In this document: in pieces, positions 1 to 19,480 of the stretch
How the letters are laid out: each line of letters opens with the position of its first letter
How positions within the stretch are numbered: position 1 is the first letter of the stretch
NCBI GenBank assembly: GCA_020850735.1
Contig: JADZEE010000027.1
Coordinates: 1 to 24,000, forward strand
Length of the DNA: 24,000 bases
Source: Gammaproteobacteria bacterium
GTDB taxonomy: Bacteria > Pseudomonadota > Gammaproteobacteria > JADZEE01
Direction: 5' to 3'
The notes under the pieces: generated by a model
Seen by the model: only the letters and a program-made list of their open reading frames with translations
The model's database searches: none
What the model was told of the DNA's origin: nothing
Program-made: the position numbers and the translations under genes

Positions 1-1971
1 GAGGCCAAGCGAGCGGCCATCAACCCCGCCGAGGCTGAGGTGCAGGCGAAGGTCTACGCCGCGCAGCTCAAAGTGCCCTATGTCTTCCTCGCCAACGGCG
101 AGGAAATCCGCTTCTGGGAATGGCAGCGCGAAGCCTTCCCCCGCGTCATCAAGACGTTTTTTTCGCAGGGAGACCTTGAACGCCGTGCCGCAACCGGGCA
201 TATGCGGCGCGACCCGCTCACGATTCCCATCGACAGGCACATTGTCGAGCGCGATTACCAAACCGATTGCGTAGACACGCTTTGTCAGGAAATGAATGCA
301 GGGCGGCGCAAGATGCTCGTTGAAATGGCGACCGGCACCGGCAAGACGCGGACTTCCGCGGCCTTGATCAAACGCCTGTTCGAAGCGAATGCCATCACAC
401 GCGTTCTCTTCCTCGTCGATCGCATCCCGCTCGCCAAGCAGACCGAGGACGCATTCGCCGAGCACCTGCCGGATTTTCCGGCTTACGTGCTGCGCGCCGG
501 CCGGCGCTTTCAGGACGAAAAACGCATCACGATCACCACGCTGCAAAGCATGGTGAACATTTATCACGAGTACTCGTCGGGCTACTTCGATCTCGTGATT
601 TCGGACGAGTGCCATCGCTCGATCTACGGCAAGTGGAGCGGCGTCCTCAAGCATTTCGACGGCGTGCAGGTCGGCCTGACCGCTACGCCGTGCATCGCCA
701 ACCCGGAGGATTTCGGCGACGATGAGGACAAGCTCACGATTCGTGACACGCTGCGCTTCTTCGAGGTCGAGGTGCCGACCTACAGTTACAAGCTCAAGGA
801 CGCCATTCGCGACGGTTTCCTGGTCCCGTATCAGATCTACAAAGCCAAGACCGTCAAGACCGCCGCGGAGGGTGGTTTTCCGGTCAGCCGCGGCGAGCTC
901 GACTGGAGCGCGATGGATCAAGGCACGCGTGCCGAGCTCGAACAGCTTTTTGGCAATGAGCAGAGCATCATCATCGATCCGGCGGCGCTGGAGCGGAAAT
1001 TCACCATCCCCGAACGCAACCGCGCCATCGTGCGCGAGTTCCGCGACGTGCTGGAAAACGGCTATACCGACGCGAAGGGGATCGTCCGCAAACCGCTGTT
1101 GGGCAAGACCATCGTCTTCGCCGTGACCAAGCGCCACGCCGAGACGCTCGCACAGATGCTCGACGCGGCCTATGCCGGCGAGAAACCGTCCCCTGAAATC
1201 CGCTATGCGGACTACGTCGTCTCCGGTATGGGTGCGGACGACACGGTCGACGGCATGACGAAGATCAAGCGGTTCAAGAAGGAGAAATTTCCCCAGATTA
1301 TCGTCTCCGTGAACATGCTCGATACCGGCTTCGACTGCCCGGAGGTCGTGAATCTCGTGTTCGCGCGGTTCACGAAATCGGCCATCCTCTACCGGCAAAT
1401 GCGCGGACGCGGGACGCGCAAGTTCAAGGGCAAGCCTGTGTTCACCATGTTCGACTTCGTCGGCGTCACCGACTACCACGGCGACGAGGACGAGGGCGGC
1501 GAAGGCGGCATCGTGGTCGCTCGTCTGCCGAAGAGGAAGTACGAGCCTCGGCGGTTGCTCTCGCTCGACATCAACGACCACATCGACCCGACCACGCGCG
1601 AGTGGGTCACCATCGATGAGAACGGAAACATGGTCTTCCCCGAAGCCTCGGAAGCGAAGGCCGCCGCGCTCGGGGCGTGCTTCGAGGCGTGGTTTCTTGC
1701 CCGGGCGGACAGTCTCACGCCCGATCAGGAGCGCTGGCTCCGCGTCGTCGGCAGCCAGCTCCGGGCAAACGCCGACACGATGGAGGAGTTCACTGCCGGG
1801 CACTTCGCCTTCCATCCCTTCACGCTGATGGGCGGCCTGCCTGAGGCCATCCGGATCTTCGGCGGCGACGAGAACGTGGACGCCGTGCTTGAGTCGCTCA
1901 ACGACGAGGTGTTCGGTGCCGACGAGCCGATGACAGCCGCCGCACTGCAGCCGGGCGCACGGCCCTCATAA
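1..1971 (+). CDS. hsdR: Type I restriction enzyme R subunit (HsdR), 5'-truncated by the window edge
   Basis: Frame 1 is open from base 1 (EAKRAAINPAEAEVQAKVY...), so the listed GTG at 40 is internal. The window starts inside the N-terminal nuclease domain (ExK 'EAK' at bases 1-9, QxxxY 'QAKVY'). SF2 helicase motifs: Walker A 'MATGTGKT', DEAH-type 'SDECHRS', 'LTATP', motif VI 'QMRGRGTR'. The C-terminal tail (LTPDQERWL...FHPFTLMGGL...IFGG) looks like the EcoEI-type R C-terminal domain. hsdM and hsdS follow directly. Confidence 0.9.
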   Translation, partial: EAKRAAINPAEAEVQAKVYAAQLKVPYVFLANGEEIRFWEWQREAFPRVIKTFFSQGDLERRAATGHMRRDPLTIPIDRHIVERDYQTDCVDTLCQEMNAGRRKMLVEMATGTGKTRTSAALIKRLFEANAITRVLFLVDRIPLAKQTEDAFAEHLPDFPAYVLRAGRRFQDEKRITITTLQSMVNIYHEYSSGYFDLVISDECHRSIYGKWSGVLKHFDGVQVGLTATPCIANPEDFGDDEDKLTIRDTLRFFEVEVPTYSYKLKDAIRDGFLVPYQIYKAKTVKTAAEGGFPVSRGELDWSAMDQGTRAELEQLFGNEQSIIIDPAALERKFTIPERNRAIVREFRDVLENGYTDAKGIVRKPLLGKTIVFAVTKRHAETLAQMLDAAYAGEKPSPEIRYADYVVSGMGADDTVDGMTKIKRFKKEKFPQIIVSVNMLDTGFDCPEVVNLVFARFTKSAILYRQMRGRGTRKFKGKPVFTMFDFVGVTDYHGDEDEGGEGGIVVARLPKRKYEPRRLLSLDINDHIDPTTREWVTIDENGNMVFPEASEAKAAALGACFEAWFLARADSLTPDQERWLRVVGSQLRANADTMEEFTAGHFAFHPFTLMGGLPEAIRIFGGDENVDAVLESLNDEVFGADEPMTAAALQPGARPS

Positions 1972-1988
1972 CGGAAGGACACAACGCA

Positions 1989-3611
1989 ATGCCCCTGACC
2001 CCCGAGATGCGCCGCTCGATCGAACAGATCCGCGACTACCTGTACGGCGGCGGCTACCCCGATCCGGTCAGCAATGCCGAGCAGCTCGCGTTCCTGTTCT
2101 TCTTCTATCTGATCGAGGGCATCGACGCCGAGAATGCGGCCCGGGCCAAGGTGCTCAAGCGGAAGCATGAGAGTCTCTTCGGCGGCTCATGGACCCTGAA
2201 GAACCCGCTGAACGCCCTTGAGAAGGGCGAGACGACGATCCCGAAAGAGCGCTTCCGCTGGTCCGTCTGGGCCAAGGGCCTTTCCGGCGAGCCGCTCGTG
2301 CGCTTCGTGCGCGATGAGGTCTTTGCGTTCTTCACCGAGGTGGCCGGGAACGGCGCCGTCAACTTCATGCACGGCGCGCGCCTCGGTATCGACGAGCCCA
2401 CCGTGCTGACGCAGGTCGTGACCCTCGTCGATGGCCTGCGGCTGGATCGCTCGGATGCGGACACCAAGGGCGACCTGTTCGAGCACGTCTTGAAGCAGAT
2501 CAAGCAGGCGGGCGAGCTGGGCCAGTTCCGCACGCCGCGCCACATCATCCGCGCCATCGTCGAGATCATCGATCCGAAGATCGGCGAGACCATCTACGAC
2601 CCGGCGGCGGGAACGGCCGGGTTCCTGGTCGCAGCCTACAACCACATCCGGCTTGCGAACTCGTCGCCGGGCGGCATCCAGAGCGTCGATTTCGACGGCA
2701 AGGTGCAGACCCGCGGCCTCGGCGACAAGCTCTCGGCCGCGCATGTCTCGGCGCTCCAGAACCAGACTTTCTTCGGTAATGATGTCGATCCGAAAATGGT
2801 GCGCCTCGCCACGATGAACCTCACGCTGCGCGGCCTGCCGAACGTGCGCATCCTGCTGCGTAACGTCCTGACCACCACGTTTGATGTCGAGCGCAAGGCC
2901 GAGCTGGGTCTGCCGCAGGAGGGCTATCACGTCGTCCTCGCCAATCCGCCGTTTTCCGGCAGGGTAGACCGGGATCGGATCGTCGATGACGTGAAAGTCG
3001 GGACGACCACTGCAACCGAGCTGCTGTTCCTCAAGTACATGATGGACAGCCTGCGTCCGGGCGGGCGCTGCGGCGTCATCGTGCCCGAGGGCGTGCTGTT
3101 CGGATCGACCGGCGCCCACAAGGAGCTGCGGCGTCAGTTGATCGAGAACAACCGCGTCGAGGCGGTGATGAGCCTGCCGGGCGGGGTATTTCAGCCGTAT
3201 TCCAGCGTGAAAACCTCGGTGCTTTTCTTCAGGAAAGGCGGCAAGACCGAAAACGTGCTTTTCCTGCACGCGGATAACGACGGCTACAAGCTCGATGCCA
3301 ACCATGACCAGCCCATCGAAGCCGATGACTTGCCGACGCTGATCACCGCTTATCGTGAGCGCGAGGCGGGACTGAAGGCTTGGGAAAAGCGCGATCCGAA
3401 AGCGGAGTGGAGCGGGCAGTGGTGGTTTGCCGATGAGGCTACGCTCCGGGCGAACGACTTCAACCTGTCAGCCGGGCGTTACCGTCCCATGAGCCAGCAG
3501 CAGGTTAAGCACCGGGACCCGCGCGAGCTGCTGGACGAACTGGCGGCCATTGAGTCCGAGATCGTCGAAGAAGTTGAAGCGCTGCGAGCGGCGCTGGGCG
3601 AGGCTGCATGA
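1989..3611 (+). CDS. hsdM: Type I R-M N6-adenine DNA methyltransferase subunit (HsdM)
   Basis: ATG at 1989 is preceded by GGAAGGA. AdoMet-binding motif I 'DPAAGTAGFL' and catalytic motif IV 'NPPF' (LANPPFSG) are present. 540 aa. Its stop overlaps the hsdS start (ATGA at 3608-3611). Confidence 0.93.
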   Translation: MPLTPEMRRSIEQIRDYLYGGGYPDPVSNAEQLAFLFFFYLIEGIDAENAARAKVLKRKHESLFGGSWTLKNPLNALEKGETTIPKERFRWSVWAKGLSGEPLVRFVRDEVFAFFTEVAGNGAVNFMHGARLGIDEPTVLTQVVTLVDGLRLDRSDADTKGDLFEHVLKQIKQAGELGQFRTPRHIIRAIVEIIDPKIGETIYDPAAGTAGFLVAAYNHIRLANSSPGGIQSVDFDGKVQTRGLGDKLSAAHVSALQNQTFFGNDVDPKMVRLATMNLTLRGLPNVRILLRNVLTTTFDVERKAELGLPQEGYHVVLANPPFSGRVDRDRIVDDVKVGTTTATELLFLKYMMDSLRPGGRCGVIVPEGVLFGSTGAHKELRRQLIENNRVEAVMSLPGGVFQPYSSVKTSVLFFRKGGKTENVLFLHADNDGYKLDANHDQPIEADDLPTLITAYREREAGLKAWEKRDPKAEWSGQWWFADEATLRANDFNLSAGRYRPMSQQQVKHRDPRELLDELAAIESEIVEEVEALRAALGEAA

Positions 3612-4858
3612 ATTGGCCGGAAAGGACGCTAGGGGACGTTTGCGAGATCAATCCTCGTCTACCGCGCGATCACGGTCTCGCGGACGACATGTCAGTTTCT
3701 TTTGTCCCAATGGCGGCGGTTGACGAGGTATCAGGCGTCGTGCGGGACAAGCAGCAACGCCCATTTCTTCAGGTTAAGAAGGGGTATACCAGTTTCCGTG
3801 ACGGCGATGTGCTGTTCGCCAAGATCACGCCCTGCATGGAGAATGGGAAAGCCGCTGTCGCGAGTGATTTGCTCAACGGAGTCGGCTTTGGCTCGACGGA
3901 GTTTCACGTTCTTCGACCAAAGGCCGGTGTGTTAGCTGAGTGGATTTACTACTTCGTAAGGAGGGAGCCCTTCCGTAGGGAGGCGAAGCGGAATTTCACT
4001 GGGACCGCCGGGCAACAGCGCGTGCCGGCAACTTTCCTTGCGAACTGTCGCATACATATTCCGCCTCTCGACGAGCAACGCCGGATTATTGATCTGCTCT
4101 CCCGCGCCGAAGGAATTATCAGACTGCGGCGCGAGGCGCAGAAGAAGGCCGCCGAAATCATCCCCGCGCTCTTCATCGACATGTTCGGCGACCCGGCGAC
4201 GAATCCGAAGGGGTGGGTCGAAACGACACTTGGAAATGTCGTTGACGAGTTTCGCTACGGAACCTCTCAGAAATCGGGAACGCTCGGACTGCCGACGCTA
4301 CGAATCCCGAACGTCATTGGCGACAGACTCGACCCGACGGAGATCAAACTCGTCTCCGTGCCCGACGTTGAGGCCAATCGCCTGCGTCTGCGCGACGGCG
4401 ATTTCCTCTTTGTTCGCACCAACGGAAATCCCGACTACGTTGGGCGGAGCGCCGTCTATGAATCGCATGTCATGCGGAACGCGGGATTCGATGGCGACAA
4501 CTGCCTCTATGCCTCCTACCTGATTCGAGCGCGCCTAAAGCTCGACGCCGTCAACCCCCGGTACCTTCAGTCCTTCCTATCGACTTCCGAGGGCCGCAAG
4601 CGTCTCCGCGAGCAGGCGCGGACATCGGCAGGGCAGTACAACATCAACACCGAGGGTCTAGCCAGTATCCGTATTCCGCTGCCATCCATTCAGCTCCAGA
4701 CTGACTATGAAGAGCGTTGCCGCCCGTTGTTCGGACTTCGAGACCTACAGTCAGTGGCGAGTGCGAAAGCAGAGGGCGCCTTCAGCGCCCTTGTCGCGCG
4801 GACGTTTTCTGGGGCCAAGCAGGCACACGACAACCCGGTGGAGGTTGCCGTCGCATGA
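3608..4858 (+). CDS. hsdS: Type I R-M specificity subunit (HsdS)
   Basis: 416 aa with two variable target-recognition halves separated by conserved helical regions ('PPLDEQRRIIDLLSRAEGIIRLRREAQKKAAEIIPALF' centrally, 'LPSIQLQTDYEERCRPLF' distally). It sits after hsdM with a 4-bp overlap. It looks more AT-rich than hsdR/hsdM, as expected for a swappable specificity gene. Confidence 0.9.
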   Translation: MNWPERTLGDVCEINPRLPRDHGLADDMSVSFVPMAAVDEVSGVVRDKQQRPFLQVKKGYTSFRDGDVLFAKITPCMENGKAAVASDLLNGVGFGSTEFHVLRPKAGVLAEWIYYFVRREPFRREAKRNFTGTAGQQRVPATFLANCRIHIPPLDEQRRIIDLLSRAEGIIRLRREAQKKAAEIIPALFIDMFGDPATNPKGWVETTLGNVVDEFRYGTSQKSGTLGLPTLRIPNVIGDRLDPTEIKLVSVPDVEANRLRLRDGDFLFVRTNGNPDYVGRSAVYESHVMRNAGFDGDNCLYASYLIRARLKLDAVNPRYLQSFLSTSEGRKRLREQARTSAGQYNINTEGLASIRIPLPSIQLQTDYEERCRPLFGLRDLQSVASAKAEGAFSALVARTFSGAKQAHDNPVEVAVA

Positions 4859-5025
4859 AGTACCCATATGAAGACATGAGTGAGGACCAGTTCGAGAAGC
4901 TCGTCGCCCTCATCTGTCAGAAGTTGCTCGGCATATCTGTGCAACCGTTCGCAAAGAGGCCAGACGGCGGGCGCGACGCGCTTGGCCGCACGGAGCAGAG
5001 GATCAAGCATTGTCTATTGTCCTGA
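4855..5025 (+). CDS. 56-aa ORF resembling only the N-terminal part of an Mrr-like/PD-(D/E)XK restriction-endonuclease domain (small protein or gene remnant)
   Basis: Internal ATG of the listed ORF 4717..5025. ATG 4855 overlaps the hsdS stop (ATGA), and GGAGG lies 10 nt upstream. The sequence MKYPYEDMSEDQFEKLVALICQKLLGISVQPFAKRPDGGRDA fits the 'xxDFExLvxxLLxxlG...F..g.DGGxD' opening of Mrr-cat-type domains. It stops 15 codons later, before any (D/E)xK strand. Its 3' end overlaps the Argonaute start by 16 nt. Confidence 0.4.
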   Translation: MKYPYEDMSEDQFEKLVALICQKLLGISVQPFAKRPDGGRDALGRTEQRIKHCLLS

Positions 5026-7202
5026 ATGCATTCCGGCTGAAAGTCCCGGACTTGTACCTTGAAGCCCGCCAGGTTTCCTACGACCAGGAAACACTTGAAG
5101 GCCTTCGCACGAAGCACGGCACTACCCACGCCTTCCGCCGACAGGGCGAGAGCATCCTTGTATTCTCGCCAGACGGAAACTTTCCCGTATCCGGTGCGAA
5201 GCAGACGATTGGGCTCAAGGACAATTTCGGCATTTTCTGCTTCTTGGTCAAGGACGGACTGACGCGGCATCTGGCCGGTCTTGGCCGTCGTCCTGTCGGC
5301 TTCACGCCCATCGAACTGGTGAGCGCTAAGCCTGAAGATAATCTTCTCGTTCCGATTCTCGGAGAGGCCTACCCTTTTCAAGTCTGCGCCAAGTACGCAA
5401 TCCACACGCGCTACGTTCAGGGCCATCCCAGTCTGGTCATTGACTGCACCACGCGGCGGGTGCTGAAGGAGACGTGTCTGTTTTTCCTTCGAGCCGGTTT
5501 CGATCTCAACGGCCGCTATGTTGCAATTGAGGAAGAGGACGGATACCGGAAGTTTCTCGGGTCGGTGAGCGCGCAGAAGGGTGACACGCTTTATGTGACG
5601 CGGCCTGACGGACAGACTGAGCAAGTCGAAGCGAAAGACATTTATCTGGAAGCCAGCCGGACGAACTTCGACGACTACGTATCCCATACGCATGGTGCGC
5701 AGAAGGACGCAATCGTCGAGCGCATCCGCCAATCTGTGTCGTCGTTTAATGGCGGCGAGAACAAGAAGACTCGCATCGATACGCTCAAGAGATACGTACA
5801 GTCGAAGTCCATTCCCCTGATCGACGGAACCCGCATTGAAATCGAGGACGCGCCTGATATTCAGCGTCACTGCGACCAGATGCCGAAGCCGGTATTCGTC
5901 TTCAATGACAACGGCGAGGCCGATTGGGTGGAGAAAGGCCTGACGCAGTACGGTCCATATACAAAGCGCACGTTTGACCGAAACGATCCGTCTATCTGCG
6001 TCATCTGTGCGCAACACGACAAGGGGCGCGTGGAGCAGTTCGTCCGCAAGCTCCTAAAAGGGATTTCCTCAAGCAAGTATTTCAGCAGTGGCCTTGAAGG
6101 TAAGTTCACTCTGGGAACCAGCCGCGTCGAGGTGTTCGCAACGGCCACGGACAGTGTGGAGGCATACAAGAACGCGATAGAAGCGGCGATCCGGAAGAAA
6201 GCGGAAGACGGGGGACGCTGGGACCTCGCGCTTGTTCAGGTCCGGCAGTCGTTCAAGAAGCTCAAGGTGACGGAGAATCCCTACTACCTGGGGAAGAGCC
6301 TTTTCTTCCTGCATCAGGTTCCTGTTCAGGACTTCACGATAGAGCTTCTCGCCCAGTCGGACTACTCGCTGGGGTATTCGCTCAACAATATGGCGCTAGC
6401 CTGCTACGCGAAGATGGGCGGTGTTCCTTGGCTACTCAAGTCCTCGCCGACGCTTTCCCACGAGCTGGTGATAGGCATTGGCAGCGCAAATATCGGGCAG
6501 GAGCGAGGCGCCGATAAGCAGCGGATCATGGGTATTACCACCGTGTTCTCAGGGGACGGCAGCTACATCGTTTCGAATACTTCGAAGGCTGTAGTGCCGG
6601 AGGCCTATTGCGAGGCGTTGACGGCGGTGCTCGGAGAGACAATCGAGAAGATCCAGAAGCGCATGAACTGGCAAAAAGGCGACACGATCCGCCTGATCTT
6701 TCACGCGCAGGTCAAGAAGTTCAACAAAGAGGAGATTGGCGCCGTCCGTGCCGTGATCGACAAGTACCGCGAATATCAGGTCGAGTATGCGTTCCTGAAA
6801 ATCTCCGAGGATCACGGGCTGCACATGTTTGACACTGCTCCGGCAAGGGAGAAGAAGGGGCGATTGGCTCCCCACCGTGGAAAGACGTTCAAGCTCTCAA
6901 ATCACGAAATGCTTGTCTACCTTATAGGTCAGCGCGAGCTGCGGCAGGATACCGATGGGCATCCGCGCGGCGTAATCCTTGATGTTCACAAGGACTCGAC
7001 CTTCAAAGACATCAAGTATCTCAGTGCCCAACTTTATAGCTTTGCGTCGCACTCGTGGCGCAGCTATTTTCCGAACCCCATGCCTGTGACGATCAGCTAT
7101 TCCGACCTGATCGCCAGGAATCTCGGGTGGATGAATCAGCTTCCGGGATGGAATGATTCGATAATGATCGGGAAGATTGGGCAATCCCAGTGGTTTCTGT
7201 AG
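5010..7202 (+). CDS. Long prokaryotic Argonaute (pAgo), catalytically degenerate (long-B-like)
   Basis: 730-aa ORF. TTG start at 5010 with GAGGA 7 nt upstream. The N-terminus 'SIVLNAFRL' resembles the LNxF opening of pAgos. MID/PIWI signature: 'VTENPYYLGKSLFFLHQVPVQDF...YSLNNMALACYAKMGGVPWLLKS...HELVIGIGSANIG'. Y-x3-K...Q...K residues match a 5'-end binding pocket. By-eye alignment to the TtAgo DEDX positions gives G (GIGSA vs GFDAG), H (RLIFHAQ vs LLLRDGR) and a retained D (SYSDLIA vs HLADRLV). Confidence 0.88.
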   Translation: MSIVLNAFRLKVPDLYLEARQVSYDQETLEGLRTKHGTTHAFRRQGESILVFSPDGNFPVSGAKQTIGLKDNFGIFCFLVKDGLTRHLAGLGRRPVGFTPIELVSAKPEDNLLVPILGEAYPFQVCAKYAIHTRYVQGHPSLVIDCTTRRVLKETCLFFLRAGFDLNGRYVAIEEEDGYRKFLGSVSAQKGDTLYVTRPDGQTEQVEAKDIYLEASRTNFDDYVSHTHGAQKDAIVERIRQSVSSFNGGENKKTRIDTLKRYVQSKSIPLIDGTRIEIEDAPDIQRHCDQMPKPVFVFNDNGEADWVEKGLTQYGPYTKRTFDRNDPSICVICAQHDKGRVEQFVRKLLKGISSSKYFSSGLEGKFTLGTSRVEVFATATDSVEAYKNAIEAAIRKKAEDGGRWDLALVQVRQSFKKLKVTENPYYLGKSLFFLHQVPVQDFTIELLAQSDYSLGYSLNNMALACYAKMGGVPWLLKSSPTLSHELVIGIGSANIGQERGADKQRIMGITTVFSGDGSYIVSNTSKAVVPEAYCEALTAVLGETIEKIQKRMNWQKGDTIRLIFHAQVKKFNKEEIGAVRAVIDKYREYQVEYAFLKISEDHGLHMFDTAPAREKKGRLAPHRGKTFKLSNHEMLVYLIGQRELRQDTDGHPRGVILDVHKDSTFKDIKYLSAQLYSFASHSWRSYFPNPMPVTISYSDLIARNLGWMNQLPGWNDSIMIGKIGQSQWFL

Positions 7203-8350
7203 AAAAAGAGAACGCCTACCAGTTGCGCGAGTACCTTCAGCGTAAGGTATCCGAAAGCGCGCACGGCGATCCGTTCAAATCGTCCTTTCTGCGTTTTCTA
7301 GGACTCTCGAAGGACGGCGGGTCAGCTTTCGACGCTACCAAGCTCTCCTTGTACCAGCGGTGTGCGGTCTCCGGGCTTGACGTTTGGGGAGTGACCGTAC
7401 CTGCTCAGGATGTGTCGCGACTGCTGGGGCAGGCCGCCAAGATCGACTCTACGCCCCGGCCCTGGGTGTCTGATGTTTTCGGCGTGATGGCCGTGAAGCG
7501 GCTCGTCGACAGGCTGAACGACAACCGCATCGTCCGTGAGTTCGAGCACTGGACTGCTGGCTTCCTTGCGCAGCAGGTCGGCGGTGACCACCTCAATCTC
7601 TTTGAAAAGGACATCGCGACCCTTATCCGCAGTGGGGAGTCCGCCGTCTATGCGACCGCCTGCGTTCCGCTCTTTCTTCATTATCAAGCGATCAGGAGGA
7701 TTGACGATCACCAGCTTCGTCTGTCCCTCATAAATCGGTTCATGCACGAATTCCGGCAGCAGGCGCAAGCAGATTCTTCGACGGCGCTACTGGGGGTGAT
7801 GGTCTACGTCTTCGACCAGATCAACGAAGATGTCGCCGTTGTGCCGCCGAAGGGCTGGAGCCTCGACGATCTTCTGATCTTTCTGGAGCATGTTCCCGTT
7901 GGCCTAAAGCGCTGGACTTGGGAAGACGCGGGGCGCACGAAAGGCGCGGTACCTGCCAAATGGCGCGTTGATAACGAATACCACGTCCAGAATCTGCTCT
8001 ACGTGTTGCTTGCGCCCGTCTTTAGTGACATCGCGGATGAAGTATATCTGCAACCAGTTGGGCAGAAGACGCCGCGGGTGGACTTGTACTTGCCGCCTCT
8101 GAACACAATCATCGAAGTTAAGTATCGGAAGGACGCGAAGAAGTCGTTTCCGATGCTCATCGGCGAGATCGCCGAGGATGCGTCTCTCTATCGGGCCGAC
8201 GCAAAATACAAAGATGTACGGATTGTCAGCTTCCTGTGGGATTGCACGCGCGCGACGCAGGAGCACACAAAATTCAAAGAGGGCGTATTGAAGATCGACG
8301 GCATGAATGGGTGCGTCGTGATCAGTGCGCCATCGACAATGAATGAGTGA
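7190..8350 (+). CDS. pAgo-associated protein with C-terminal PD-(D/E)XK nuclease fold motif and unrecognised N-terminal domain
   Basis: 386 aa. GTG 7190 overlaps the pAgo stop by 13 nt; an alternative TTG at 7223 is possible, so the start is uncertain. The C-terminal region 'DNEYHVQNLLYVLLAPVF...TPRVDLYLPPLNTIIEVKYRKD' gives the E...D...E-x-K arrangement of restriction-endonuclease-like nucleases. The first ~250 aa match nothing I recognise. Confidence 0.75.
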   Translation: MVSVEKENAYQLREYLQRKVSESAHGDPFKSSFLRFLGLSKDGGSAFDATKLSLYQRCAVSGLDVWGVTVPAQDVSRLLGQAAKIDSTPRPWVSDVFGVMAVKRLVDRLNDNRIVREFEHWTAGFLAQQVGGDHLNLFEKDIATLIRSGESAVYATACVPLFLHYQAIRRIDDHQLRLSLINRFMHEFRQQAQADSSTALLGVMVYVFDQINEDVAVVPPKGWSLDDLLIFLEHVPVGLKRWTWEDAGRTKGAVPAKWRVDNEYHVQNLLYVLLAPVFSDIADEVYLQPVGQKTPRVDLYLPPLNTIIEVKYRKDAKKSFPMLIGEIAEDASLYRADAKYKDVRIVSFLWDCTRATQEHTKFKEGVLKIDGMNGCVVISAPSTMNE

Positions 8351-8505
8351 TCTCGGCCGTACTGCCGAAGCGCGGGACGGCGACCGAACGTCGTAGTTGT
8401 GGCCGGTGCTGCGTTGCCAGGCCTGAATTCCCACCCGACTGTTAGCATTGCTAACGGCCAGCCAGTCATGCCATGAATGCGGAGTAAGTTGCTACGGAAC
8501 TTTCT

Positions 8506-8847
8506 TCATAGTTCGAGGATCACACTGTCAACCGCAAGAGGTCGGCATTCGTTGAACGACCATCTCGCACACAGTGCGCCCAGGCATTCACCGAAGACAT
8601 CACTGGACGCACCTGCACGATCTTGAATTTCGTTGGCTGTGTCAGCCCGCTTGATGCTCGTTACGCATCGCCCACGCTCGAAAGAGCGCCCGAAACCGGC
8701 CTCATCTCCTGAAAGCCGGTGGCCGCAAGGCTCGGAGGTATCCGTAAGCAACCGCCTCTCGGGGCGCTCAGCAATGCGCATGACGCAATAGTTCGCGTTC
8801 CTGCCGCAGTTCGTAAGTGGCGCCAGCAAGCGGAATTCCGTTTGCAT
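8506..8847 (-). CDS. Possible Cys-rich hypothetical protein or degraded gene (very uncertain)
   Basis: Internal ATG (8847) of the listed ORF 8506..9018, with GAGG 9 nt upstream. Third-position GC looks moderately coding-like. No recognisable family. The upstream part of the listed ORF is Ala/Arg/Trp-rich and unconvincing. Confidence 0.15.
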   Translation of the reverse strand: MQTEFRLLAPLTNCGRNANYCVMRIAERPERRLLTDTSEPCGHRLSGDEAGFGRSFERGRCVTSIKRADTANEIQDRAGASSDVFGECLGALCARWSFNECRPLAVDSVILEL

Positions 8848-9048
8848 CGGCGTCAACCTCGAGCGGGGTTTCTCTCCGTTCTCAGTCTGTACCGCTGCCC
8901 CTGCTGAACGCTTGGTGCGCCAACCGCGCGTCCATGCGTAAGGCTCGCGGGCGGACCCCTGCCAGCACGCCGCGACGGCCTTGGCCGCCGCAATCCCTGC
9001 GCCAACATGTGTCCGCACTCCTGCGGCAATCCGTGGCTGCGCCAGCCG

Positions 9049-9191
9049 GCGTCGTCACTGGCGGCTTGCTGCTAGTGACGACGCGCCATATGCCTCAGTC
9101 ATCAACGAGTTATAGGGTGCTGGCGCAAGTGACGACCCCTCGCGATGCGCTCTTCTGGCGCATCGCACCGTAACAACCGCGCAATGCGGTT
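9049..9191. repeat. Cluster of GC-rich inverted repeats plus a reiterated 9-mer in a non-coding region
   Basis: Perfect 11-bp inverted repeat GCGTCGTCACT (9049-9059) / AGTGACGACGC (9074-9084) with a 14-nt spacer. The 9-mer AGTGACGAC recurs in direct orientation at 9128-9136. Perfect 9-bp inverted repeat GCGATGCGC (9142-9150) / GCGCATCGC (9158-9166) with a 7-nt loop. 6-bp inverted repeat AACCGC/GCGGTT (9175-9191). Confidence 0.6.
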
Positions 9192-9482
9192 CGTCCATCG
9201 GCCCGTTCCTCGACGGGCATCGTTCCACGTCGCGCGCAATCCGCGCACCCCTGAGCCTTGGGTGATGGCTCATCTCGAAGGATCGACTTCCAACAGGAAG
9301 CGGCCTCGATGCCAATGCCACGTGTCGGGCAGGCAAGCAGCAAAAACTACGGCACAAAACGGGAGTGGTGTCCCGGGTCCCTCGAAGTACTCGTCCTGCC
9401 CAGGCAGGCGAGACGGACAGAAACACTAACCGGACATGCGGCACGCACCAGGGGCAATTGAGCAACGAACGAAGAGGACGCG

Positions 9483-10349
9483 ATGAGAGACCTGAACTAC
9501 GAACTGAAGCAACTCTGCCTGCGCAACCGCGACGGCAGCTTTTCCACGCAGTACGCGCGCGAGCGCATTCTGACCATGATCGCCAATCAGTTGCACGAGA
9601 TGGGCTTCCATCACATGCAGGCGGCGAGCCTGAAGCCTAAGCATGTCGAGGCACTGGTCGAGCGCTGGAAGGCGGAATCCCTTTCCGCCGGCACGATCAA
9701 GAACCGGATGACCGAGCTGCGCTGGTGGGCCGAGAAAGTGGCCAAACAGAATGTGCTGGCTCGCGCCAACGAATTCTACGGCATCCCGCGACGGAATTAT
9801 GTGACCAATGTCAGCCGGTCACGGGTGCTCACCACCGGGGACCTGGAGAAGCTCACCGATCCCTGGACGCGCATGTCGCTCAAGTTGCAGGCGGCCTTCG
9901 GTTTGCGGCGGGAGGAGTCGATCAAGATCCGGCCCGAGTGGGCCGACCGCGGCGACCGGCTCGCGCTCAAGGCGAGCTGGACCAAGGGTGGGAGGGAGCG
10001 CGAGATTCCGATTCGCACGGCAGAGCAGCGCCTAGTACTCGACGAAGCCAAGCAGCTCGCGGTCCGCGGAAGCCTGATCCCAAAGGCGTCGAGCTACGTC
10101 CAGCAGTTGCAGCGATTCAAGGCGCAGTGCATGGCGGCGGGAATTCAGCACGTGCACGGCCACCGCCACCAGTACGCGCAGGATCGCTACCGCGTACTGA
10201 CCGGCTGGGCCTGTCCCGCGCAAGGCGGGCCGACCTCGAAGCAGCTCACCTACGAGCAGAAAGCTATCGATCGCCAGGCCCGTCTCGCGATCAGCGCGGA
10301 GCTGGGCCACGGTCGCGAAAGAATCACATCGGTCTATCTCGGCCGGTAG
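9483..10349 (+). CDS. Tyrosine recombinase/integrase-family protein (plasmid/ICE-type 'integrase domain-containing protein')
   Basis: 288 aa. ATG 9483 is preceded by GAAGAGGA. N-terminal SAM-like region 'LKPKHVEALVERWKAESLSAGTIKNRMTELRWW'. Catalytic-type residues in order: 'GLRREES' (R), 'HGHRHQYAQ' (HxxR), 'LGHGRERITSVYLG' (H...Y). Confidence 0.8.
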   Translation: MRDLNYELKQLCLRNRDGSFSTQYARERILTMIANQLHEMGFHHMQAASLKPKHVEALVERWKAESLSAGTIKNRMTELRWWAEKVAKQNVLARANEFYGIPRRNYVTNVSRSRVLTTGDLEKLTDPWTRMSLKLQAAFGLRREESIKIRPEWADRGDRLALKASWTKGGREREIPIRTAEQRLVLDEAKQLAVRGSLIPKASSYVQQLQRFKAQCMAAGIQHVHGHRHQYAQDRYRVLTGWACPAQGGPTSKQLTYEQKAIDRQARLAISAELGHGRERITSVYLGR

Positions 10350-10437: not shown

Positions 10438-10740
10438 ATGCGCACACGCCTGAACGCGCCGCGGAACGACTCCGGTCGCGAATCGGAGGTGCTGACCTTC
10501 AGCGCGCTGCTGGTGGTGCTTGGCCGTCGGTCCCGGCAGTCGATCTACGATCTGATGCGGCGGGACCCATCGTTCCCTCGACCGCGACAGCTCGGCAGTG
10601 AGTTCTCCATCGGCTGGCTGCGGGCCGAGGTGATGCAGTGGTTGCATTCTCGGCCGCTCGTCGAACTGAACGGGCTCGATGCGGTGGAACGGCGGAGGCG
10701 GGCGCGAGGAACGAGGGCGGCAGGGGTGGCCGGGAAGTAG
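10438..10740 (+). CDS. AlpA-family (prophage CP4-57-type) helix-turn-helix regulator / excisionase-like protein
   Basis: 100 aa. 'LTFSALLVVLGRRSRQSIYDLMRRDPSFPRPRQLGSEFSIGWLRAEVMQWL' fits the AlpA pattern (l..El...lG.SrstiY.l...g.FP.P..lG.r...W...EV..Wl). It lies next to the recombinase gene. No strong SD at ATG 10438. Confidence 0.72.
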   Translation: MRTRLNAPRNDSGRESEVLTFSALLVVLGRRSRQSIYDLMRRDPSFPRPRQLGSEFSIGWLRAEVMQWLHSRPLVELNGLDAVERRRRARGTRAAGVAGK

Positions 10741-10852: not shown

Positions 10853-11143
10853 ATGGGAATCTCCACCAACGACGTTATTCCGCTGTCGCAGGCCCGCGCC
10901 AACTTTTCGGAGCTGGCTGAGGAGGTCAAGGCCGGCGCCGAGAAGATCATCACCAAGAACGGCGAGAGCTACGTGGCGCTGATCGACGCGGAGCGGTTGG
11001 ACCATTACCACCGGCTGGAGCGCGAACGCATTCACTTGCTGTTGATCGATGAGGCGGGCAAGGGGCTCGACGATGTCGCCGCCGGCCGCGTGAAGGATGC
11101 CCGCGGCACAATCCAGTCGATCAAGCGCCGCCGCAGCGCGTAA
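10853..11143 (+). CDS. Phd/YefM-family type II antitoxin
   Basis: 96 aa. 'ISTNDVIPLSQARANFSELAEEVKAGAEKIITKNGESYVALIDAERLDHY' is the canonical Phd/YefM N-terminal fold sequence. Strong SD. A toxin gene follows 20 nt downstream. Confidence 0.85.
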   Translation: MGISTNDVIPLSQARANFSELAEEVKAGAEKIITKNGESYVALIDAERLDHYHRLERERIHLLLIDEAGKGLDDVAAGRVKDARGTIQSIKRRRSA

Positions 11144-11162
11144 GACGGTCGGAGCGGTCCCG

Positions 11163-11570
11163 ATGGCGAGGAAGCCTGTCGTCCGGCTCACCGCGAACTT
11201 CGAGAGCAACCTCGCCGACATCGAGCGTTTTCTGACCGAGGCTGAAGCGCGCAAAGCTTACGACGCGCTGCTCGACGAACTGCTGGACACCGTGATTCCG
11301 AACCTCGAACGGTTTCCCGGCATTGGACGGCCGTTCCTCGCGCATCCGGCGCGCTCGGTCGAAACCTCGAATGCGCTGGACGCATTGCGCGCGAAGTTAT
11401 CGGCGCTGACTCCGGACCCGGAAGCACTGCGCGAATACATCCTCGACCACTATCTGGTGCTGTACGCGCAGATTGACGCGAATCTCTATCTGCTGGCGAT
11501 CAGGCATCACCGCCAACTGTCGTTCGATTTCCAGTCGCACTGGGGCGGGACTTCGTCGATGCCAAAGTGA
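11163..11570 (+). CDS. ParE/RelE-family type II toxin (with an internal insertion)
   Basis: Internal ATG (11163) of the listed ORF 11097..11570, 135 aa. 'LADIERFL...NLERFPGIGRP' and C-terminal 'YLVLYAQIDANLYLLAIRHHRQL' match the ParE/RelE pattern (..rfP..Gr......y.i.Y......i.il.i.H.r). It sits directly after a Phd/YefM antitoxin. It is longer than typical toxins because of a ~30-aa insert (ARSVETSNALDALRAKLSALTPDPEAL). Confidence 0.75.
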   Translation: MARKPVVRLTANFESNLADIERFLTEAEARKAYDALLDELLDTVIPNLERFPGIGRPFLAHPARSVETSNALDALRAKLSALTPDPEALREYILDHYLVLYAQIDANLYLLAIRHHRQLSFDFQSHWGGTSSMPK

Positions 11571-11764: not shown

Positions 11765-12604
11765 TTACGGAGTTTCGCGGAAGGCCGGCGACTGCATGCG
11801 CACGATGGCCATCGCGTTCAGCGGGATGCGGGGATTCGGCTGGGCGTATAAGCAGCGGTCGGGCATCGGCAGCGTGCCACCAGTGGCGCGGGCCGCGAAG
11901 TAGTCCTCGACCTGCGCGCGCCATTCGCCTTCCGGCGCCTGCGGATTCAAGCCGGCGGCGTACAGGCGCAGCAGCGTCGCGATGGTGTTGTTCACCAGCG
12001 GGACGTACATGGGGTAGCAATAGGTCACGCGGATCTTCAGCAGGTTGGCGTCCTGGATGCTCACACCGCCCTTCACCGTGGCCGGGCGGTACATCAGGTT
12101 GTCGTTCGGGATCTCGTATCCGCCGCTGACGTCGACACCGTGATTCGATGTCTGGAAGTGCTCCGGGCGCGGATTGAGGATCTCGATGTCGACCCACGTG
12201 TCATTGGTGGCGCCAGCGGGGATCACGGGTCCCGGGGGGGGATCGCCGCCGGCCTGGCAGGCGTACTCGTCGCCGCCGTACAGCTCGGTGCGAACCACGC
12301 AGCGGGCGCGGCGGACGCCGTCCGCCGTGTCGTCGTGCGTGAACAGCGGCGCGAGGCCGCGAACGAAACCGTTCTCGATGAAATTCATGCGCGCGTTGTT
12401 CAGCGATCCGGAGCGGGCGGCTTCGAACGCGGCGTAGTTCAGGGTGATCTTGGCGTGATAGATGAGTGCGAACTGCAGGGCGCCGAACACGAGCAGCAGC
12501 AGGACCGAGCCGACGATCACGCTTTCGACCATGGCTTGGCCCCGTTGTCGCGACCGCTGCACGAAACGGTACCGCATGGACGGAATTCTAGCAGGGCGGC
12601 TCAC
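11765..12604 (-). CDS. TadE/TadG-like pseudopilin (Flp pilus assembly)
   Basis: 279 aa. Leader plus hydrophobic segment 'QRGQAMVESVIVGSVLLLLVFGALQFALIY' (G-x4-E prepilin-like junction and TadE-like helix). GTG 12604 overlaps the upstream stop (GTGA); an alternative ATG lies at 12577. Last gene of the tad operon. Confidence 0.7.
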   Translation of the reverse strand: MSRPARIPSMRYRFVQRSRQRGQAMVESVIVGSVLLLLVFGALQFALIYHAKITLNYAAFEAARSGSLNNARMNFIENGFVRGLAPLFTHDDTADGVRRARCVVRTELYGGDEYACQAGGDPPPGPVIPAGATNDTWVDIEILNPRPEHFQTSNHGVDVSGGYEIPNDNLMYRPATVKGGVSIQDANLLKIRVTYCYPMYVPLVNNTIATLLRLYAAGLNPQAPEGEWRAQVEDYFAARATGGTLPMPDRCLYAQPNPRIPLNAMAIVRMQSPAFRETP

Positions 12605-13674
12605 GGCTCACCGCCGTTTTCGCCGTTGCGCGTGACCTCGTCCTCACCAGGGCCACTGGTCGCGGTGGCGGCGGCAGGCCCGGATTCCGGCGCATCCGTC
12701 CCGGTATCGGCGTCATCGCCGGCCGTGGCATCGTCCTCCGCGGCGCCGGTCGTGCCTGTGTCCTCGACGATACCGCCGGTCGTGACCTCGTCCGCGATCG
12801 TGCCGGCGCTCACAGCGGTGGCGGCAGGCCCGGGTTCCGTCACCGCCGGGTCGTCCGGCGCGGGTGCGGGCGGCGGCGCGTCCGCTCCGGTATCGCCGCC
12901 GTCGCCGGCCGTGGCATCGTCCTCCGCGGCGCCGGTCGTGCCTGTGTCCTCGACGATACCGCCGGTCGTGACCTCGTCCGCGATCGTGCCGGTGCTCACA
13001 GCGGTGGCGGCAGGCCCGGGTTCCGTCACCGCCGGATCGTCCGGCGCGGGTGAGGGCGACGGTGCGCCCGTCCCGGTGTCGCCAGCCGCAGCCGGTACGG
13101 TTGCCGCCCCGTCACCCGCGCTGTCGTCGGCCGCGGTCGCCGGCACGACCTCGAGCGGGGACGGCGCGGCCTGCGGCGGCGATGCCGGCGGGTTGCCGGC
13201 AGCGGTCTGATCGCCGCCTTCCAGCAGCGCGGCGACGCCGCCGAGCAGGGACCTGGCACGGTCGCGCAGGGGATCGTTCGCCGACGCGAACTGATCCATC
13301 TGCGCGAAAGTGGCCGCCGCCTCGCGCAACTGCACCACGCCCATGTTGTGCCAGGCCTTGCTCATGCCGGGTTCACGCAGCACGGCTTCCCGGTAGGCGG
13401 CGACGGCCTCGGCCGGCCGGCCGAGGCGCGCGTAGACATTCCCCAGCCGGAACCAGGATTCAGTGACCCGCGGCGCGCGCTCGGTGAGCGTCTTGTAAGC
13501 GGCGGCGGCCTGGTTCCAGTCGCCGCCGTCGTAGGCGGCCGCCGCGCTGCGCTCGATGGCGTACAGATCCCCCTTCGGCGTGTCCGGGCGCGTCACGTCC
13601 TCGAGGCTGCAGCCGGCCAGCCAGGCCAGCGCGATCATCAACGCCGGCGTCGCGATCCTCGTCCGGCGGGCCAC
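12601..13674 (-). CDS. TPR-repeat lipoprotein (TadD-like) with an acidic repeat-containing C-terminal tail
   Basis: Start proposed at GTG 13674 (GGGAGA 9 nt upstream, 1 nt after the DUF192 stop) rather than the listed 13728. Lipobox 'LAWLAGC' follows the basic n-region 'ARRTR'. TPR-like segment 'WNQAAAAYKTLTERAPRVTESWFRLGNVYARLGRPAEAVAAYREAVLREPGMSKAWHNMG'. The C-terminal ~190 aa are a T/G/D/A/E-rich tandem repeat. Confidence 0.75.
   Translation of the reverse strand: MARRTRIATPALMIALAWLAGCSLEDVTRPDTPKGDLYAIERSAAAAYDGGDWNQAAAAYKTLTERAPRVTESWFRLGNVYARLGRPAEAVAAYREAVLREPGMSKAWHNMGVVQLREAAATFAQMDQFASANDPLRDRARSLLGGVAALLEGGDQTAAGNPPASPPQAAPSPLEVVPATAADDSAGDGAATVPAAAGDTGTGAPSPSPAPDDPAVTEPGPAATAVSTGTIADEVTTGGIVEDTGTTGAAEDDATAGDGGDTGADAPPPAPAPDDPAVTEPGPAATAVSAGTIADEVTTGGIVEDTGTTGAAEDDATAGDDADTGTDAPESGPAAATATSGPGEDEVTRNGENGGEP
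12668..13050. repeat. 186-bp (62-codon) near-perfect tandem repeat inside the TadD-like gene
   Basis: The landmark 'ggcaggcccgg' recurs at 12673, 12823 and 13009. Units 2 and 3 are 186 bp apart, and the first unit is 36 bp shorter. A ~140-nt block (from about 12718 and about 12904) is identical apart from 2 mismatches seen by eye. It encodes PAPDDPAVTEPGPAATAVS(T/A)GTIADEVTTGGIVEDTGTTGAAEDDATAGD. Confidence 0.85.
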
Positions 13675-13675
13675 G

Positions 13676-14029
13676 TCAGCAGGTCTCCCACACGAGCGTG
13701 TCACCCACGGCGAGCGCCAAGGCCGCATTCGCGCCCGGGGCGAGCTCCAGAGTCATCGACGCGGCCAGGCAGGCTGACAGGCGGGCCGGCGCGAGCTCGC
13801 GCACGAGCTTGACCACCGCCCAGGCCGTGTCGAGGTACACCAGGTCGATCGCGCCGCGCATGCCGAAGGTGTGCACGCAGCGGCAGCGATCGATGAGCAG
13901 CCCCGTTCCCGGAGCCAGGGGAGGACGCCCGAGCAGCCCGCGCATGCGTTCCCACGCGGTCGTCGTCAGCGAAACATCGCCGAGCAGGGTGGAATGATCT
14001 TTCTTGCGGCGCAGGCGGCCGGCGATCAC
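13676..14029 (-). CDS. DUF192 (COG1430)-family protein embedded in the tad operon
   Basis: Only the last 117 codons of the listed 400-aa ORF 13676..14878 are credible. GTG 14029 overlaps the tadC stop (GTGA). 'AWERMRGLLGRPPLAPGTGLLIDRCRCVHTFGMRGAIDLVYLDTAWAVVKLVRELAP...LELAPG' fits the DUF192 pattern (er..GLmgr..l....gml......vhtfgM...iDvvflD..g.Vv). Confidence 0.7.
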   Translation of the reverse strand: MIAGRLRRKKDHSTLLGDVSLTTTAWERMRGLLGRPPLAPGTGLLIDRCRCVHTFGMRGAIDLVYLDTAWAVVKLVRELAPARLSACLAASMTLELAPGANAALALAVGDTLVWETC

Positions 14030-14922
14030 AACGTACCTTCGGCCATGAACTTCATCACGATGGGAAATCCGAGCACCACGAAGGTGACCGGGAAGATGAA
14101 AACGATGAGCGGGAACACGAGCTTCACGGGTGCTTCCATCGCCACCTTTTCCGCGCGCGTGAAGCGTTCGTTGCGACGCTGCTCGGCCTGCACCCGCAGC
14201 ACGGCCGCGAGGCTCGAACCCATACGTTCGGCCTGGATCATCGACGTGACGAAGCTGGTGACCTCGGGGATGTCGAGGCGCTCGGCCATGCGCCGCAGCG
14301 AATCGGCACGGCTCAGGCCCGAACGCAGATCGCGCAGCACGATACCGAACTCGTTGCGCAGCGGTCCCGGCGGCGCCTTTTCCATCGCCTGGGCGAGTCC
14401 CCCCTGCAGGTTCAGGCCCGCCTCCACCGCCATGGTGATGAAGTCCAGGTACACCGGCATGGCGCGCACTACGGCCAGCTCGCGCTTGCGCCGCGTGTCG
14501 CGCAGCCACAGCGTCGGGAACAGAAAGCCCAGGAAGGGCGCGAGTATGTGCACCACGGGCGGGATGTTGACCGGCAGGGCGACGTCCATGTACAGCGACA
14601 GCACCAGGAAGAAGATGGCGGACAGGATCCGCAGCCCGATGAACTGCTCCGCGGTCACCATGTAACTGACGCCCGTCTTCTGCAGCTTGTCTTCCGTGCT
14701 CTCGAGGTATTCGTAGGGCAGAAACTGCACGAAGAAATGGGCGATGATCCGCACCAGCGGCCAAATGGGTCTCATCAGCGGCGGAATCGGATCCATGAAC
14801 GAGCGGTCCTCGTCCTCCACCATCCCGTGCAGCAGGTGGATGGTCATGAGGAAGCAGAATACGCTCAGCCCGGTGCACAGCGCGCTGACCTCGAACATAC
14901 GGTTGACGAGAAATTCCTGCAT
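14026..14922 (-). CDS. tadC: Flp pilus assembly inner-membrane platform protein TadC (T2SS F family)
   Basis: 298 aa polytopic membrane protein. T2SSF-like cytoplasmic domain 'LPVYLDFITMAVEAGLNLQGGLAQAMEK...LRNEFGIVLRDLRSGLSRADSLRRMAERL'. It is the second platform gene after the ATPase. Confidence 0.85.
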   Translation of the reverse strand: MQEFLVNRMFEVSALCTGLSVFCFLMTIHLLHGMVEDEDRSFMDPIPPLMRPIWPLVRIIAHFFVQFLPYEYLESTEDKLQKTGVSYMVTAEQFIGLRILSAIFFLVLSLYMDVALPVNIPPVVHILAPFLGFLFPTLWLRDTRRKRELAVVRAMPVYLDFITMAVEAGLNLQGGLAQAMEKAPPGPLRNEFGIVLRDLRSGLSRADSLRRMAERLDIPEVTSFVTSMIQAERMGSSLAAVLRVQAEQRRNERFTRAEKVAMEAPVKLVFPLIVFIFPVTFVVLGFPIVMKFMAEGTL

Positions 14923-14927
14923 GGCGG

Positions 14928-15809
14928 CTACACGTCGATCCGGGTGATTTTGCGGATGAAGAAATTACCGAGCCCCAGCCACACGATGATGCCGGCGAGC
15001 ACTCCCCAGCCGACCTTGGTCGTCCACAGCTTGGACATTGCCTCGGGCTCGAGCATGTACAGCAGCACGGCGAGCAGGAACGGCAGCAGGCTCATGACGA
15101 TGCCCTGCAGCTTGCCCTGGGCGGTGAGACTGTCGATCTTGCCTTCCATCATCTGTTTGCGGCGCAGGGTGTCGGCCAGCGACTCGAGTGTTTCGGCCAG
15201 ATTGCCGCCGACCTCCCGGCTGATACGCATCGCCGACATCACCATGGTGAAATCCTGCAGCGGCATGCGCTTTTCCATGTTGTCCAGCGACTTCTCGAAG
15301 TCCAGGCCCAGGCGCTGCTCGCGCATGAACAGCTCGAACTCCTGGCTGAGCGGTGGCGGTTGCTCCTTGACCAGGGACTCCAGCGCGATGTTCAGGCTCG
15401 CACCGGCGCGCATCGATCCGGAAACGAGCAGCAGGCCGTCGGGCAGCTGCCGTTCAAAGCGTTTCAGCCTCTTTTTGCGCATCGCGCGGTAGAAAAACCC
15501 CGGCAGGATGATCAGCACGCCGAGCAGCACCAGCGCCGAGATTGCGTCGCGCGTGATCGCCCACACCAGCAGCGGCAGCACCACGATCGCGGCGATGTTC
15601 ATGTAGAACAGCCTCGTCGCGTCGACGAACATGAACATGTCCGCCATGTTCGTGCTCGCGCTGTCGGTGAAGGTCGACTGGTAGCGCGCCATGAAACTCT
15701 GCCCCTGGACGAGCGTGGCGTAGACCAGCAGCGCCGCCGACAGGAAGGCGAGTGTTATGACGACCAGGAACAGGATGTCGCCACCGATGTCGAGCATGAA
15801 TGCCTTCAT
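14928..15809 (-). CDS. tadB: Flp pilus assembly inner-membrane platform protein TadB (T2SS F family)
   Basis: 293 aa. T2SSF-like domain 'QLPDGLLLVSGSMRAGASLNIALESLVKEQPPPLSQEFELFMREQRLGLDFEKSLDNMEKRMP' plus flanking TM segments. Lies directly downstream of cpaF. Confidence 0.85.
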   Translation of the reverse strand: MKAFMLDIGGDILFLVVITLAFLSAALLVYATLVQGQSFMARYQSTFTDSASTNMADMFMFVDATRLFYMNIAAIVVLPLLVWAITRDAISALVLLGVLIILPGFFYRAMRKKRLKRFERQLPDGLLLVSGSMRAGASLNIALESLVKEQPPPLSQEFELFMREQRLGLDFEKSLDNMEKRMPLQDFTMVMSAMRISREVGGNLAETLESLADTLRRKQMMEGKIDSLTAQGKLQGIVMSLLPFLLAVLLYMLEPEAMSKLWTTKVGWGVLAGIIVWLGLGNFFIRKITRIDV

Positions 15810-15820
15810 GGCGGGGCCCC

Positions 15821-17482: not shown

Positions 17483-17491
17483 GGCGGTTCT

Positions 17492-18793: not shown

Positions 18794-18859
18794 TGTCGTC
18801 TCATCCCCTGGTTCTATCCCATTGGTCTTGCCGGTACGCCGTCGGCGTACCGAAACGCA

Positions 18860-19450: not shown

Positions 19451-19480
19451 CTCAATCCCTCTGAACGGCTGTCCCGGTGC

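Follow-up and report, generated by a model that had tools for sequence, protein, structure and literature searches.

Results

Genes and features of the pAgo-nuclease locus

We analysed a 24,000-nucleotide (nt) stretch of an uncultured gammaproteobacterium (assembly GCA_020850735.1, contig JADZEE010000027.1, positions 1 to 24,000), here called the window. Two overlapping genes in it encode a long-B prokaryotic Argonaute (pAgo) and a putative long-B pAgo-associated nuclease (bAgaN), which is the subject of this study. The pair corresponds to the BPAN system, known from Escherichia coli as EcBPAN with the components EcAgo and EcbAgaN. The genes and the features within them are as follows.

5010-7202, + strand: long-B pAgo, catalytically inactive, the system's sensor; 730 amino acids (aa), TTG start, TAG stop at 7200-7202
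7190-8350, + strand: bAgaN gene; 386 aa, GTG start, stop at 8348-8350, from the open reading frame (ORF) list and homology
7190-7202, + strand: 13-nt overlap of the bAgaN start and the pAgo stop (GTGGTTTCTGTAG), from the raw sequence
7190-7849, + strand: all-helical N-terminal domain (aa 1-220), whose E. coli counterpart docks onto pAgo and holds the nuclease inhibited
7430-7459, + strand: protruding loop Q81-R90 (QAAKIDSTPR), the docking loop by alignment to E. coli
7850-8347, + strand: C-terminal domain, aa 221-386, by its experimentally defined bounds
7889-8335, + strand: PD-(D/E)XK nuclease domain, aa 234-382, Pfam REase_DpnII-MboI; 81% identical to the EcbAgaN C-terminal domain
7976-7978, + strand: E263, helix glutamate of the nuclease core (NEYHVQ), invariant in a 42-sequence alignment
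8081-8083, + strand: D298, catalytic aspartate; the residue number matches D298 of EcbAgaN
8114-8122, + strand: E309-V310-K311, the (D/E)XK motif, identical to EcbAgaN

The 7190-8350 gene encodes a bAgaN protein

A phmmer search of solved-structure sequences matched the 7190-8350 product to EcbAgaN (PDB 23wq, chain 23wq_1) over residues 1-385, gap-free, with E=1.7e-177. In a global alignment the two proteins are 67.3% identical overall, 57% over aa 1-220 and 81% over aa 221-385. PADLOC matched the protein to Aga_Helical-REase (PDLC02404, E=7.7e-130, residues 8-385). Its sole Pfam domain is PF18742, REase_DpnII-MboI, at aa 234-382 (E=1.3e-41, profile positions 2-150 of 150); the Pfam search gave no match for the first 230 aa, and the NCBIfam search gave no model for the protein. 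The 100% identical NCBI entry is a "hypothetical protein" from a Gammaproteobacteria metagenome-assembled genome (MAG). Full-length homology, the two-domain build, the D-EVK motif, a co-oriented long-B pAgo gene upstream and the docking loop were all found. On this homology, the product is very probably bAgaN, the DNA-cutting partner of an inactive pAgo, and an ordinary member of the known BPAN system.

The E. coli orthologues have been characterised in two studies. EcbAgaN is a dimeric, Mn2+-dependent, non-specific DNase that also cuts methylated DNA; recognition of target DNA by EcAgo through an RNA guide leads to collateral DNA degradation, and EcBPAN kills plasmid-invaded cells (Song 2023, PMC10620215). 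By cryo-electron microscopy (cryo-EM), eight EcAgo-guide-target ternary complexes (four dimers) and eight EcbAgaN molecules (four dimers) form an 8:8 bowl, where EcbAgaN's C-terminal nuclease domains make an active octamer (Liu 2026, PMC13535254). Each EcbAgaN N-terminal domain binds one EcAgo, and its protruding loop Q81-R90 enters the MID/PIWI cleft; replacement of this loop by a linker abolished both assembly and activity (PMC13535254). Because the C-terminal domain alone is toxic and the full-length protein harmless, the N-terminal domain is autoinhibitory (PMC13535254). Against one phage, EcBPAN gives protection through abortive infection, in which the host DNA is degraded (PMC13535254). 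The original prediction had implied a poorly understood system, which underrated the published record: the components, triggers, structure and phenotype of BPAN are known, the family has a PADLOC model, and the 2023 paper on its function was followed in 2026 by a cryo-EM structure and mutants of the interfaces.

The nuclease domain carries the catalytic residues of EcbAgaN

The motifs on which the original prediction had based a C-terminal PD-(D/E)XK nuclease are present as quoted, NEYHVQ at aa 262-267, PRVDLYL at aa 295-301 and IIEVKYRK at aa 307-314, and they supply E263, D298 and E309-V310-K311, respectively. They are not chance matches, given the E-values of the Pfam domain (1.3e-41) and of the whole-protein alignment (1.7e-177), and the nuclease assignment is upheld by Pfam, by Aga_Helical-REase of PADLOC and by the solved orthologue. 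The predicted two-part layout also stood, with corrected sizes: the nuclease domain has about 150-165 aa (from aa 221 or 234 to 386) rather than about 120, and the N-terminal domain about 220 aa rather than about 250.

D298, E309, V310 and K311 are the same residues at the same positions in the window protein and in EcbAgaN, and D298, E309 and K311 are conserved in all 138 homologues aligned. In E. coli, the D298A mutation of EcbAgaN abolished both DNase activity and defence (PMC10620215; PMC13535254), and an E309A/K311A mutant was inactive (Song 2023, PMC10620215). A catalytic role for E263 is inferred from the general PD-(D/E)XK layout.

The helical N-terminal domain contains the docking loop

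An AlphaFold2 (AF2) model of aa 1-225 contained 10 helices (predicted local distance difference test, pLDDT, 72; predicted template modelling score, pTM, 0.70). It had a low-confidence exposed loop at aa 85-95, which agrees with the published protruding loop of EcbAgaN. This docking loop is identical to that of E. coli at 9 of 10 residues (QAAKIDSTPR vs. QAPKIDSTPR); the difference is P83A, and alanine is the family majority. The loop is near-invariant among the 138 homologues, and within the N-terminal domain conservation peaks in the block 81-100 (0.95 vs. 0.86). The pAgo-contact residues R77, D86, S94 and H134 are identical to those of EcbAgaN. The guess that the N-terminal part might be a pAgo-docking or activation-sensing module has since found its answer in the E. 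coli orthologue, where such a role was shown (PMC13535254).

That the N-terminal part resembles nothing nameable, as the original prediction had remarked, still holds outside the family. Foldseek against the PDB gave no fold match for the domain at E<=1e-3. A phmmer search of aa 1-225 against 1.84 billion cluster representatives returned only 25 proteins, among which the full-length matches were Helical-REase proteins of 375-388 aa. The two matches that differed in architecture, an EF-hand repeat protein (P0139) and a repetitive ORF (P0144), were rejected as spurious, since repeats had amplified their similarity to the "FEHWTAGFL" stretch. Six candidate stand-alone N-terminal-domain proteins (P0121, P0122, P0124, P0125, P0127 and P0130) were truncated or frameshifted fragments. 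In these searches the N-terminal domain is confined to the bAgaN family and has no relatives elsewhere in sequence or PDB fold; Liu 2026 (PMC13535254) likewise found none outside the family.

The partner is an inactive long-B pAgo

The upstream gene product matched EcAgo of PDB 23wq over residues 1-730 (E=0, 79% identity) and RsAgo over aa 153-730 (E=1e-76), and PADLOC matched it to pAgo_II (E=1.6e-287). It has the full-length N/PAZ/MID/PIWI architecture with a disrupted DEDX tetrad: G491/E531/Q567/D699 correspond to G492/E532/Q568/D700 of EcAgo. The proposal that the nuclease is the effector of an inactive long-B pAgo of the BPAN or RsAgo type is thereby supported. The residues of the 5'-phosphate MID pocket (Y425, K429, Q440, K468, D441 and the C-terminal L730) are conserved in 18 of 18 sequences. 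The specificity-loop residue N423 and the 1'-nucleotide pocket are conserved too. The pAgo residues that contact bAgaN (Y317, R320, F322, N553 and D558) are conserved.

The TTG start codon of the pAgo gene occurs in 17 of 17 orthologous loci (L001-L017) with a purine-rich ribosome-binding site ahead of it, which reads AGAGGA in the window. An in-frame ATG 36 nt upstream, giving the 743-aa form of EcAgo discussed by Song 2023 (PMC10620215), does not occur in the window; L013 has it, and of these loci L013 is the nearest to the E. coli copy. The locus comparison supports the 731-aa start site of EcAgo.

The gene overlap and the protein interfaces

The 13-nt overlap of the bAgaN gene with the pAgo stop, already pointed out in the original prediction, is the same in the ORF list and in the raw sequence. 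The junction reads CAG TGG TTT CTG TAG in the pAgo frame and GTG GTT TCT GTA GAA in the bAgaN frame. It is conserved as ATGGTTyCTrTAG in 16 of 16 close orthologous loci from other genomes, and it is probably a translational coupling site. The bAgaN start codon is GTG in the window and in L015 and ATG in the other 15 orthologous loci, with the overlap otherwise conserved.

We compared the residues at the three bAgaN interfaces with those of EcbAgaN. Dimer site 2 and octamer site 3 are each identical at 9 of 10 residues (the exceptions being Q259R and N286Y), and site 1 is identical at 2 of 4 (D14E and Q189R differ). Several hydrogen-bond partners singled out in the E. coli cryo-EM structure, D14, P83 and Q189 of EcbAgaN and S524 and H726 of EcAgo, are minority states in the family; the window proteins and most homologues have E, A, R, N and Q, respectively (aa 14, 83 and 189 of bAgaN and aa 523 and 725 of pAgo in window numbering). 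At most of the differing positions the window has the state that prevails in the family, and it is E. coli that departs from it.

Relatives and distribution

At E<=1e-3, bAgaN has 616 homologues. The best 120 of these are 75-95% identical to it and come from Pseudomonas aeruginosa, Xanthomonas albilineans, Methylomonas, Thiohalobacter and MAGs labelled Nitrospirae and Acidobacteriaceae, a taxonomic spread that points to horizontal transfer. A scan of related loci, with one genome per species, gave 30 loci, and in all 28 that had upstream DNA a pAgo homologue lay directly upstream of bAgaN. The genes around BPAN vary (resolvases, integrases, ParB, AbiEii, TIR, GNAT and TetR in 15 loci), and a conserved third gene was sought in these 15 loci and none was found. 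As the neighbours are not conserved, BPAN is a self-contained two-gene cassette, and in the window it is a horizontally acquired one.

In E. coli the system is present in 2 of 5,426 complete genomes (NZ_CP178662.1 and NZ_CP024147.1), with about 70% nucleotide identity to the window, and one of the two copies is split by an IS2 insertion. A plasmid of Shewanella putrefaciens (CP078039.1, 211525-212679) carries a bAgaN with 79% identity to that of the window. The annotation at this match reads "hypothetical protein | lipase chaperone". Since the window pAgo weakly matches the NCBIfam model of a lipase secretion chaperone (E=0.039), the name "lipase chaperone" probably belongs to the overlapping pAgo gene and looks like a mis-annotation.

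Local setting of the cassette

The remaining features of the window are a Type I restriction-modification (R-M) operon and the remnant of an ABC-three-component-system (ABC-3C) gene upstream, and an integrase module and a pilus cluster downstream.

40-1971, + strand: hsdR, C-terminal part
1989-3611, + strand: hsdM
3608-4858, + strand: hsdS
4855-5025, + strand: 56-codon ORF, ATGA overlap with the hsdS stop
4855-4980, + strand: remnant of an ABC-3C gene, first 42 codons, Mrr-like nuclease N-terminus (tblastn; Pfam Mrr_cat, E=0.0014)
8351-9482: 1.1-kb stretch without a recognisable gene
9483-10349, + strand: integrase
10438-10740, + strand: AlpA-like regulator
10853-11570, + strand: Phd/YefM antitoxin and ParE toxin pair, overlapping ORFs adjoining the integrase module
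11765-23505, - strand: Tad/Flp-type pilus cluster (TadE-like, TPR protein, T2SSF, T2SSE ATPase with FHA domain, secretin)

By tblastn, the 56-codon ORF aligns over its first 42 residues with residues 1-42 of a 326-aa ABC-3C protein from a Citrobacter plasmid (69% identity, E=3e-15). No other part of the three-gene ABC-3C system is left in the window. The ABC-3C homology ends at 4980, and nucleotide similarity to the BPAN leader of another locus (L012) begins at 4976. From this change, BPAN appears to have taken the place of an ABC-3C defence system that followed the Type I R-M operon and whose gene was cut after codon 42. The remnant is not part of BPAN and marks the upstream edge of the inserted cassette.

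The GC content of the cassette (5000-8500) is 0.556-0.565, compared with 0.60-0.65 in the flanks and up to 0.73 in the pilus cluster, which fits a recent horizontal acquisition. The very GC-rich stretch (0.73) lies at about 12500-14000, inside the pilus cluster. Positions 8624-8749 and 9037-10317 have 80% and 71% DNA identity, respectively, to positions 12850-14599 of a locus in a Ramlibacter MAG (L008), about 3.7 kb downstream of BPAN there, and the cassette may travel with the integrase module. A search for att-like direct repeats flanking the cassette and the integrase gave only short, chance-level repeats.

From hsdS to bAgaN each gene overlaps the next, hsdR and hsdM are only 17 nt apart, and all are on the + strand. 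Promoter and terminator scans were at background level, and no sigma-70-like promoter was found between hsdS and pAgo. Read-through expression of BPAN from the hsdRMS operon is possible. No Rfam families or tRNAs were found in the window.

Discussion

Comparison with related systems

EcBPAN and the window system have the same operon order of pAgo then nuclease, the 13-nt overlap, and a nuclease of the same length and domain order. The D-EVK motif is at identical positions, 9 of 10 residues of loop 81-90 agree, and the guide pocket and the broken tetrad of pAgo are identical. The two systems differ in the bAgaN start codon (ATG in E. coli and GTG in the window) and in the N-terminal domain, which is only 57% identical. 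They differ in setting as well, the window host being an uncultured gammaproteobacterium with about 63% GC whose cassette follows a Type I R-M operon. The Rhodobacter sphaeroides protein RsAgo (PDB 5awh, 6d8a and 6d95) resembles the window pAgo in being of the long-B type, with a PIWI domain that is inactive, and in targeting DNA by means of RNA guides. It is much farther from the window pAgo than EcAgo is, and against the NCBIfam equivalog model of the Rhodobacter-type Argonaute the window protein scores 338 bits, below the cut-off of 700 bits.

In SPARDA (DREN-APAZ) and SPARHA, as in BPAN, an inactive Argonaute switches on a collateral PD-(D/E)XK DNase by higher-order assembly, which leads to abortive infection (PMC13535254). 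These short-pAgo systems use an APAZ effector in a constitutive heterodimer with a short pAgo and are activated as filaments, whereas BPAN has a full-length pAgo (730 aa here), an unrelated helical domain, recruitment only after target binding and a closed 8:8 ring (PMC13535254). No APAZ or short-pAgo (MID-PIWI only) model was among the PADLOC and Pfam matches of the window, and bAgaN does not class as a short-pAgo effector.

Alternative explanations

We considered whether the protein might be a restriction endonuclease (Type II, DpnII/MboI kind) that stands alone, belongs to the neighbouring R-M cluster (hsdR/M/S, 40-4858) and works independently of pAgo. In favour are the sole Pfam match of bAgaN, which is to REase_DpnII-MboI, and the Type I R-M operon immediately upstream, which has the same orientation. 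bAgaN does share the catalytic core of the PF18742 Type II enzymes over the whole profile. However, the match covers the core only (aa 234-382), and the other 230 aa are the helical domain specific to bAgaN, a regulatory addition of 220 aa that those enzymes do not have. The invariable neighbour is a pAgo gene, immediately upstream in 28 of 28 related loci, whereas an N6 methylase match occurred in 1 of 108 neighbouring ORFs scanned (15 of the loci). The window has no adjacent Dam-type (GATC) methylase, and HsdR already supplies the Type I system with a nuclease/helicase. The cleavage by EcbAgaN is non-specific and includes methylated DNA, no sequence specificity being reported (PMC10620215). 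With no cognate methyltransferase and with pAgo as the conserved partner, the assignment to the DpnII/MboI Type II enzymes was rejected, and a pAgo-independent restriction enzyme is exceedingly unlikely. Another explanation is a passenger cassette, silent or in decay, that entered a defence island with no promoter and, having weak starts, no longer serves defence in its host. It would account for the TTG and GTG start codons and for the missing sigma-70-like promoter between hsdS and pAgo; the insertion destroyed the gene at its landing site, and of the two copies in E. coli one is broken by IS2. On the other hand, both ORFs are intact and full length, with all catalytic and guide-binding residues and most interface residues conserved. 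The TTG start of pAgo is family-wide (17 of 17 loci) and no local defect, the purine-rich site AGAGGA precedes it, and read-through from hsdRMS is plausible with same-strand genes that overlap from hsdS to bAgaN and a gap of 17 nt between hsdR and hsdM. We consider a silent passenger to be very improbable.

Several points weigh against the assignment of the gene pair as a working BPAN system of the E. coli kind. The window bAgaN is 33% divergent from EcbAgaN, and its N-terminal domain 43%, and its function is assigned by homology. Residues that form hydrogen bonds in the E. coli complex are changed here (D14E, Q189R, Q259R and N286Y in bAgaN; D400E, H726Q and S524N in pAgo), and therefore the stoichiometry and the contact details of the window system could differ from those in E. 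coli. The AF2 model of full-length bAgaN was poor (pLDDT 49.9, pTM 0.44, from a 42-sequence alignment at 75-95% identity). Because this model was too poor for a fold search, the nuclease fold of the window protein rests on Pfam and the solved orthologue. Both genes have weak start codons (TTG and GTG) with no promoter-like site upstream, and their expression is only predicted.

Proposed mechanism

If the window system works as BPAN does in E. coli, where the mechanism was demonstrated and from which we carry it over by homology, resting bAgaN would be a dimer in which the helical aa 1-220 inhibit the C-terminal DNase of aa 221-386 (D298, E309 and K311). The pAgo would load 5'-phosphorylated small RNAs and pair them with invader DNA. 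Once bound to its target, pAgo would expose the MID/PIWI cleft, into which the bAgaN loop Q81-R90 would insert. Four pAgo dimers and four bAgaN dimers would then interlock into the 8:8 bowl with the nuclease domains as the active octamer. This octamer is expected to degrade DNA non-specifically, the host chromosome included, and the infected cell would be killed or arrested, which would protect the population.

Significance

The discovery value of the locus is small, as it holds a well-conserved orthologue of a published system that PADLOC recognises. What the comparison contributes concerns the family: the TTG start of pAgo is family-wide, and about 140 homologues from several bacterial phyla show near-invariance in the catalytic motif, in the docking loop and at the pAgo cleft. 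The locus also illustrates the turnover of defence systems, with BPAN in place of ABC-3C at a hot spot that follows Type I R-M genes. A fuller scenario, which we regard as tentative and rather doubtful, is that BPAN did not come in as a unit of its own but recombined into the 3' end of the Type I R-M operon, deleting the ABC-3C system after codon 42 of its first gene, and that hsdR-hsdM-hsdS-pAgo-bAgaN may form one read-through transcript. If this is true, the operon would be a layered defence in which restriction and Argonaute-triggered suicide share their regulation.

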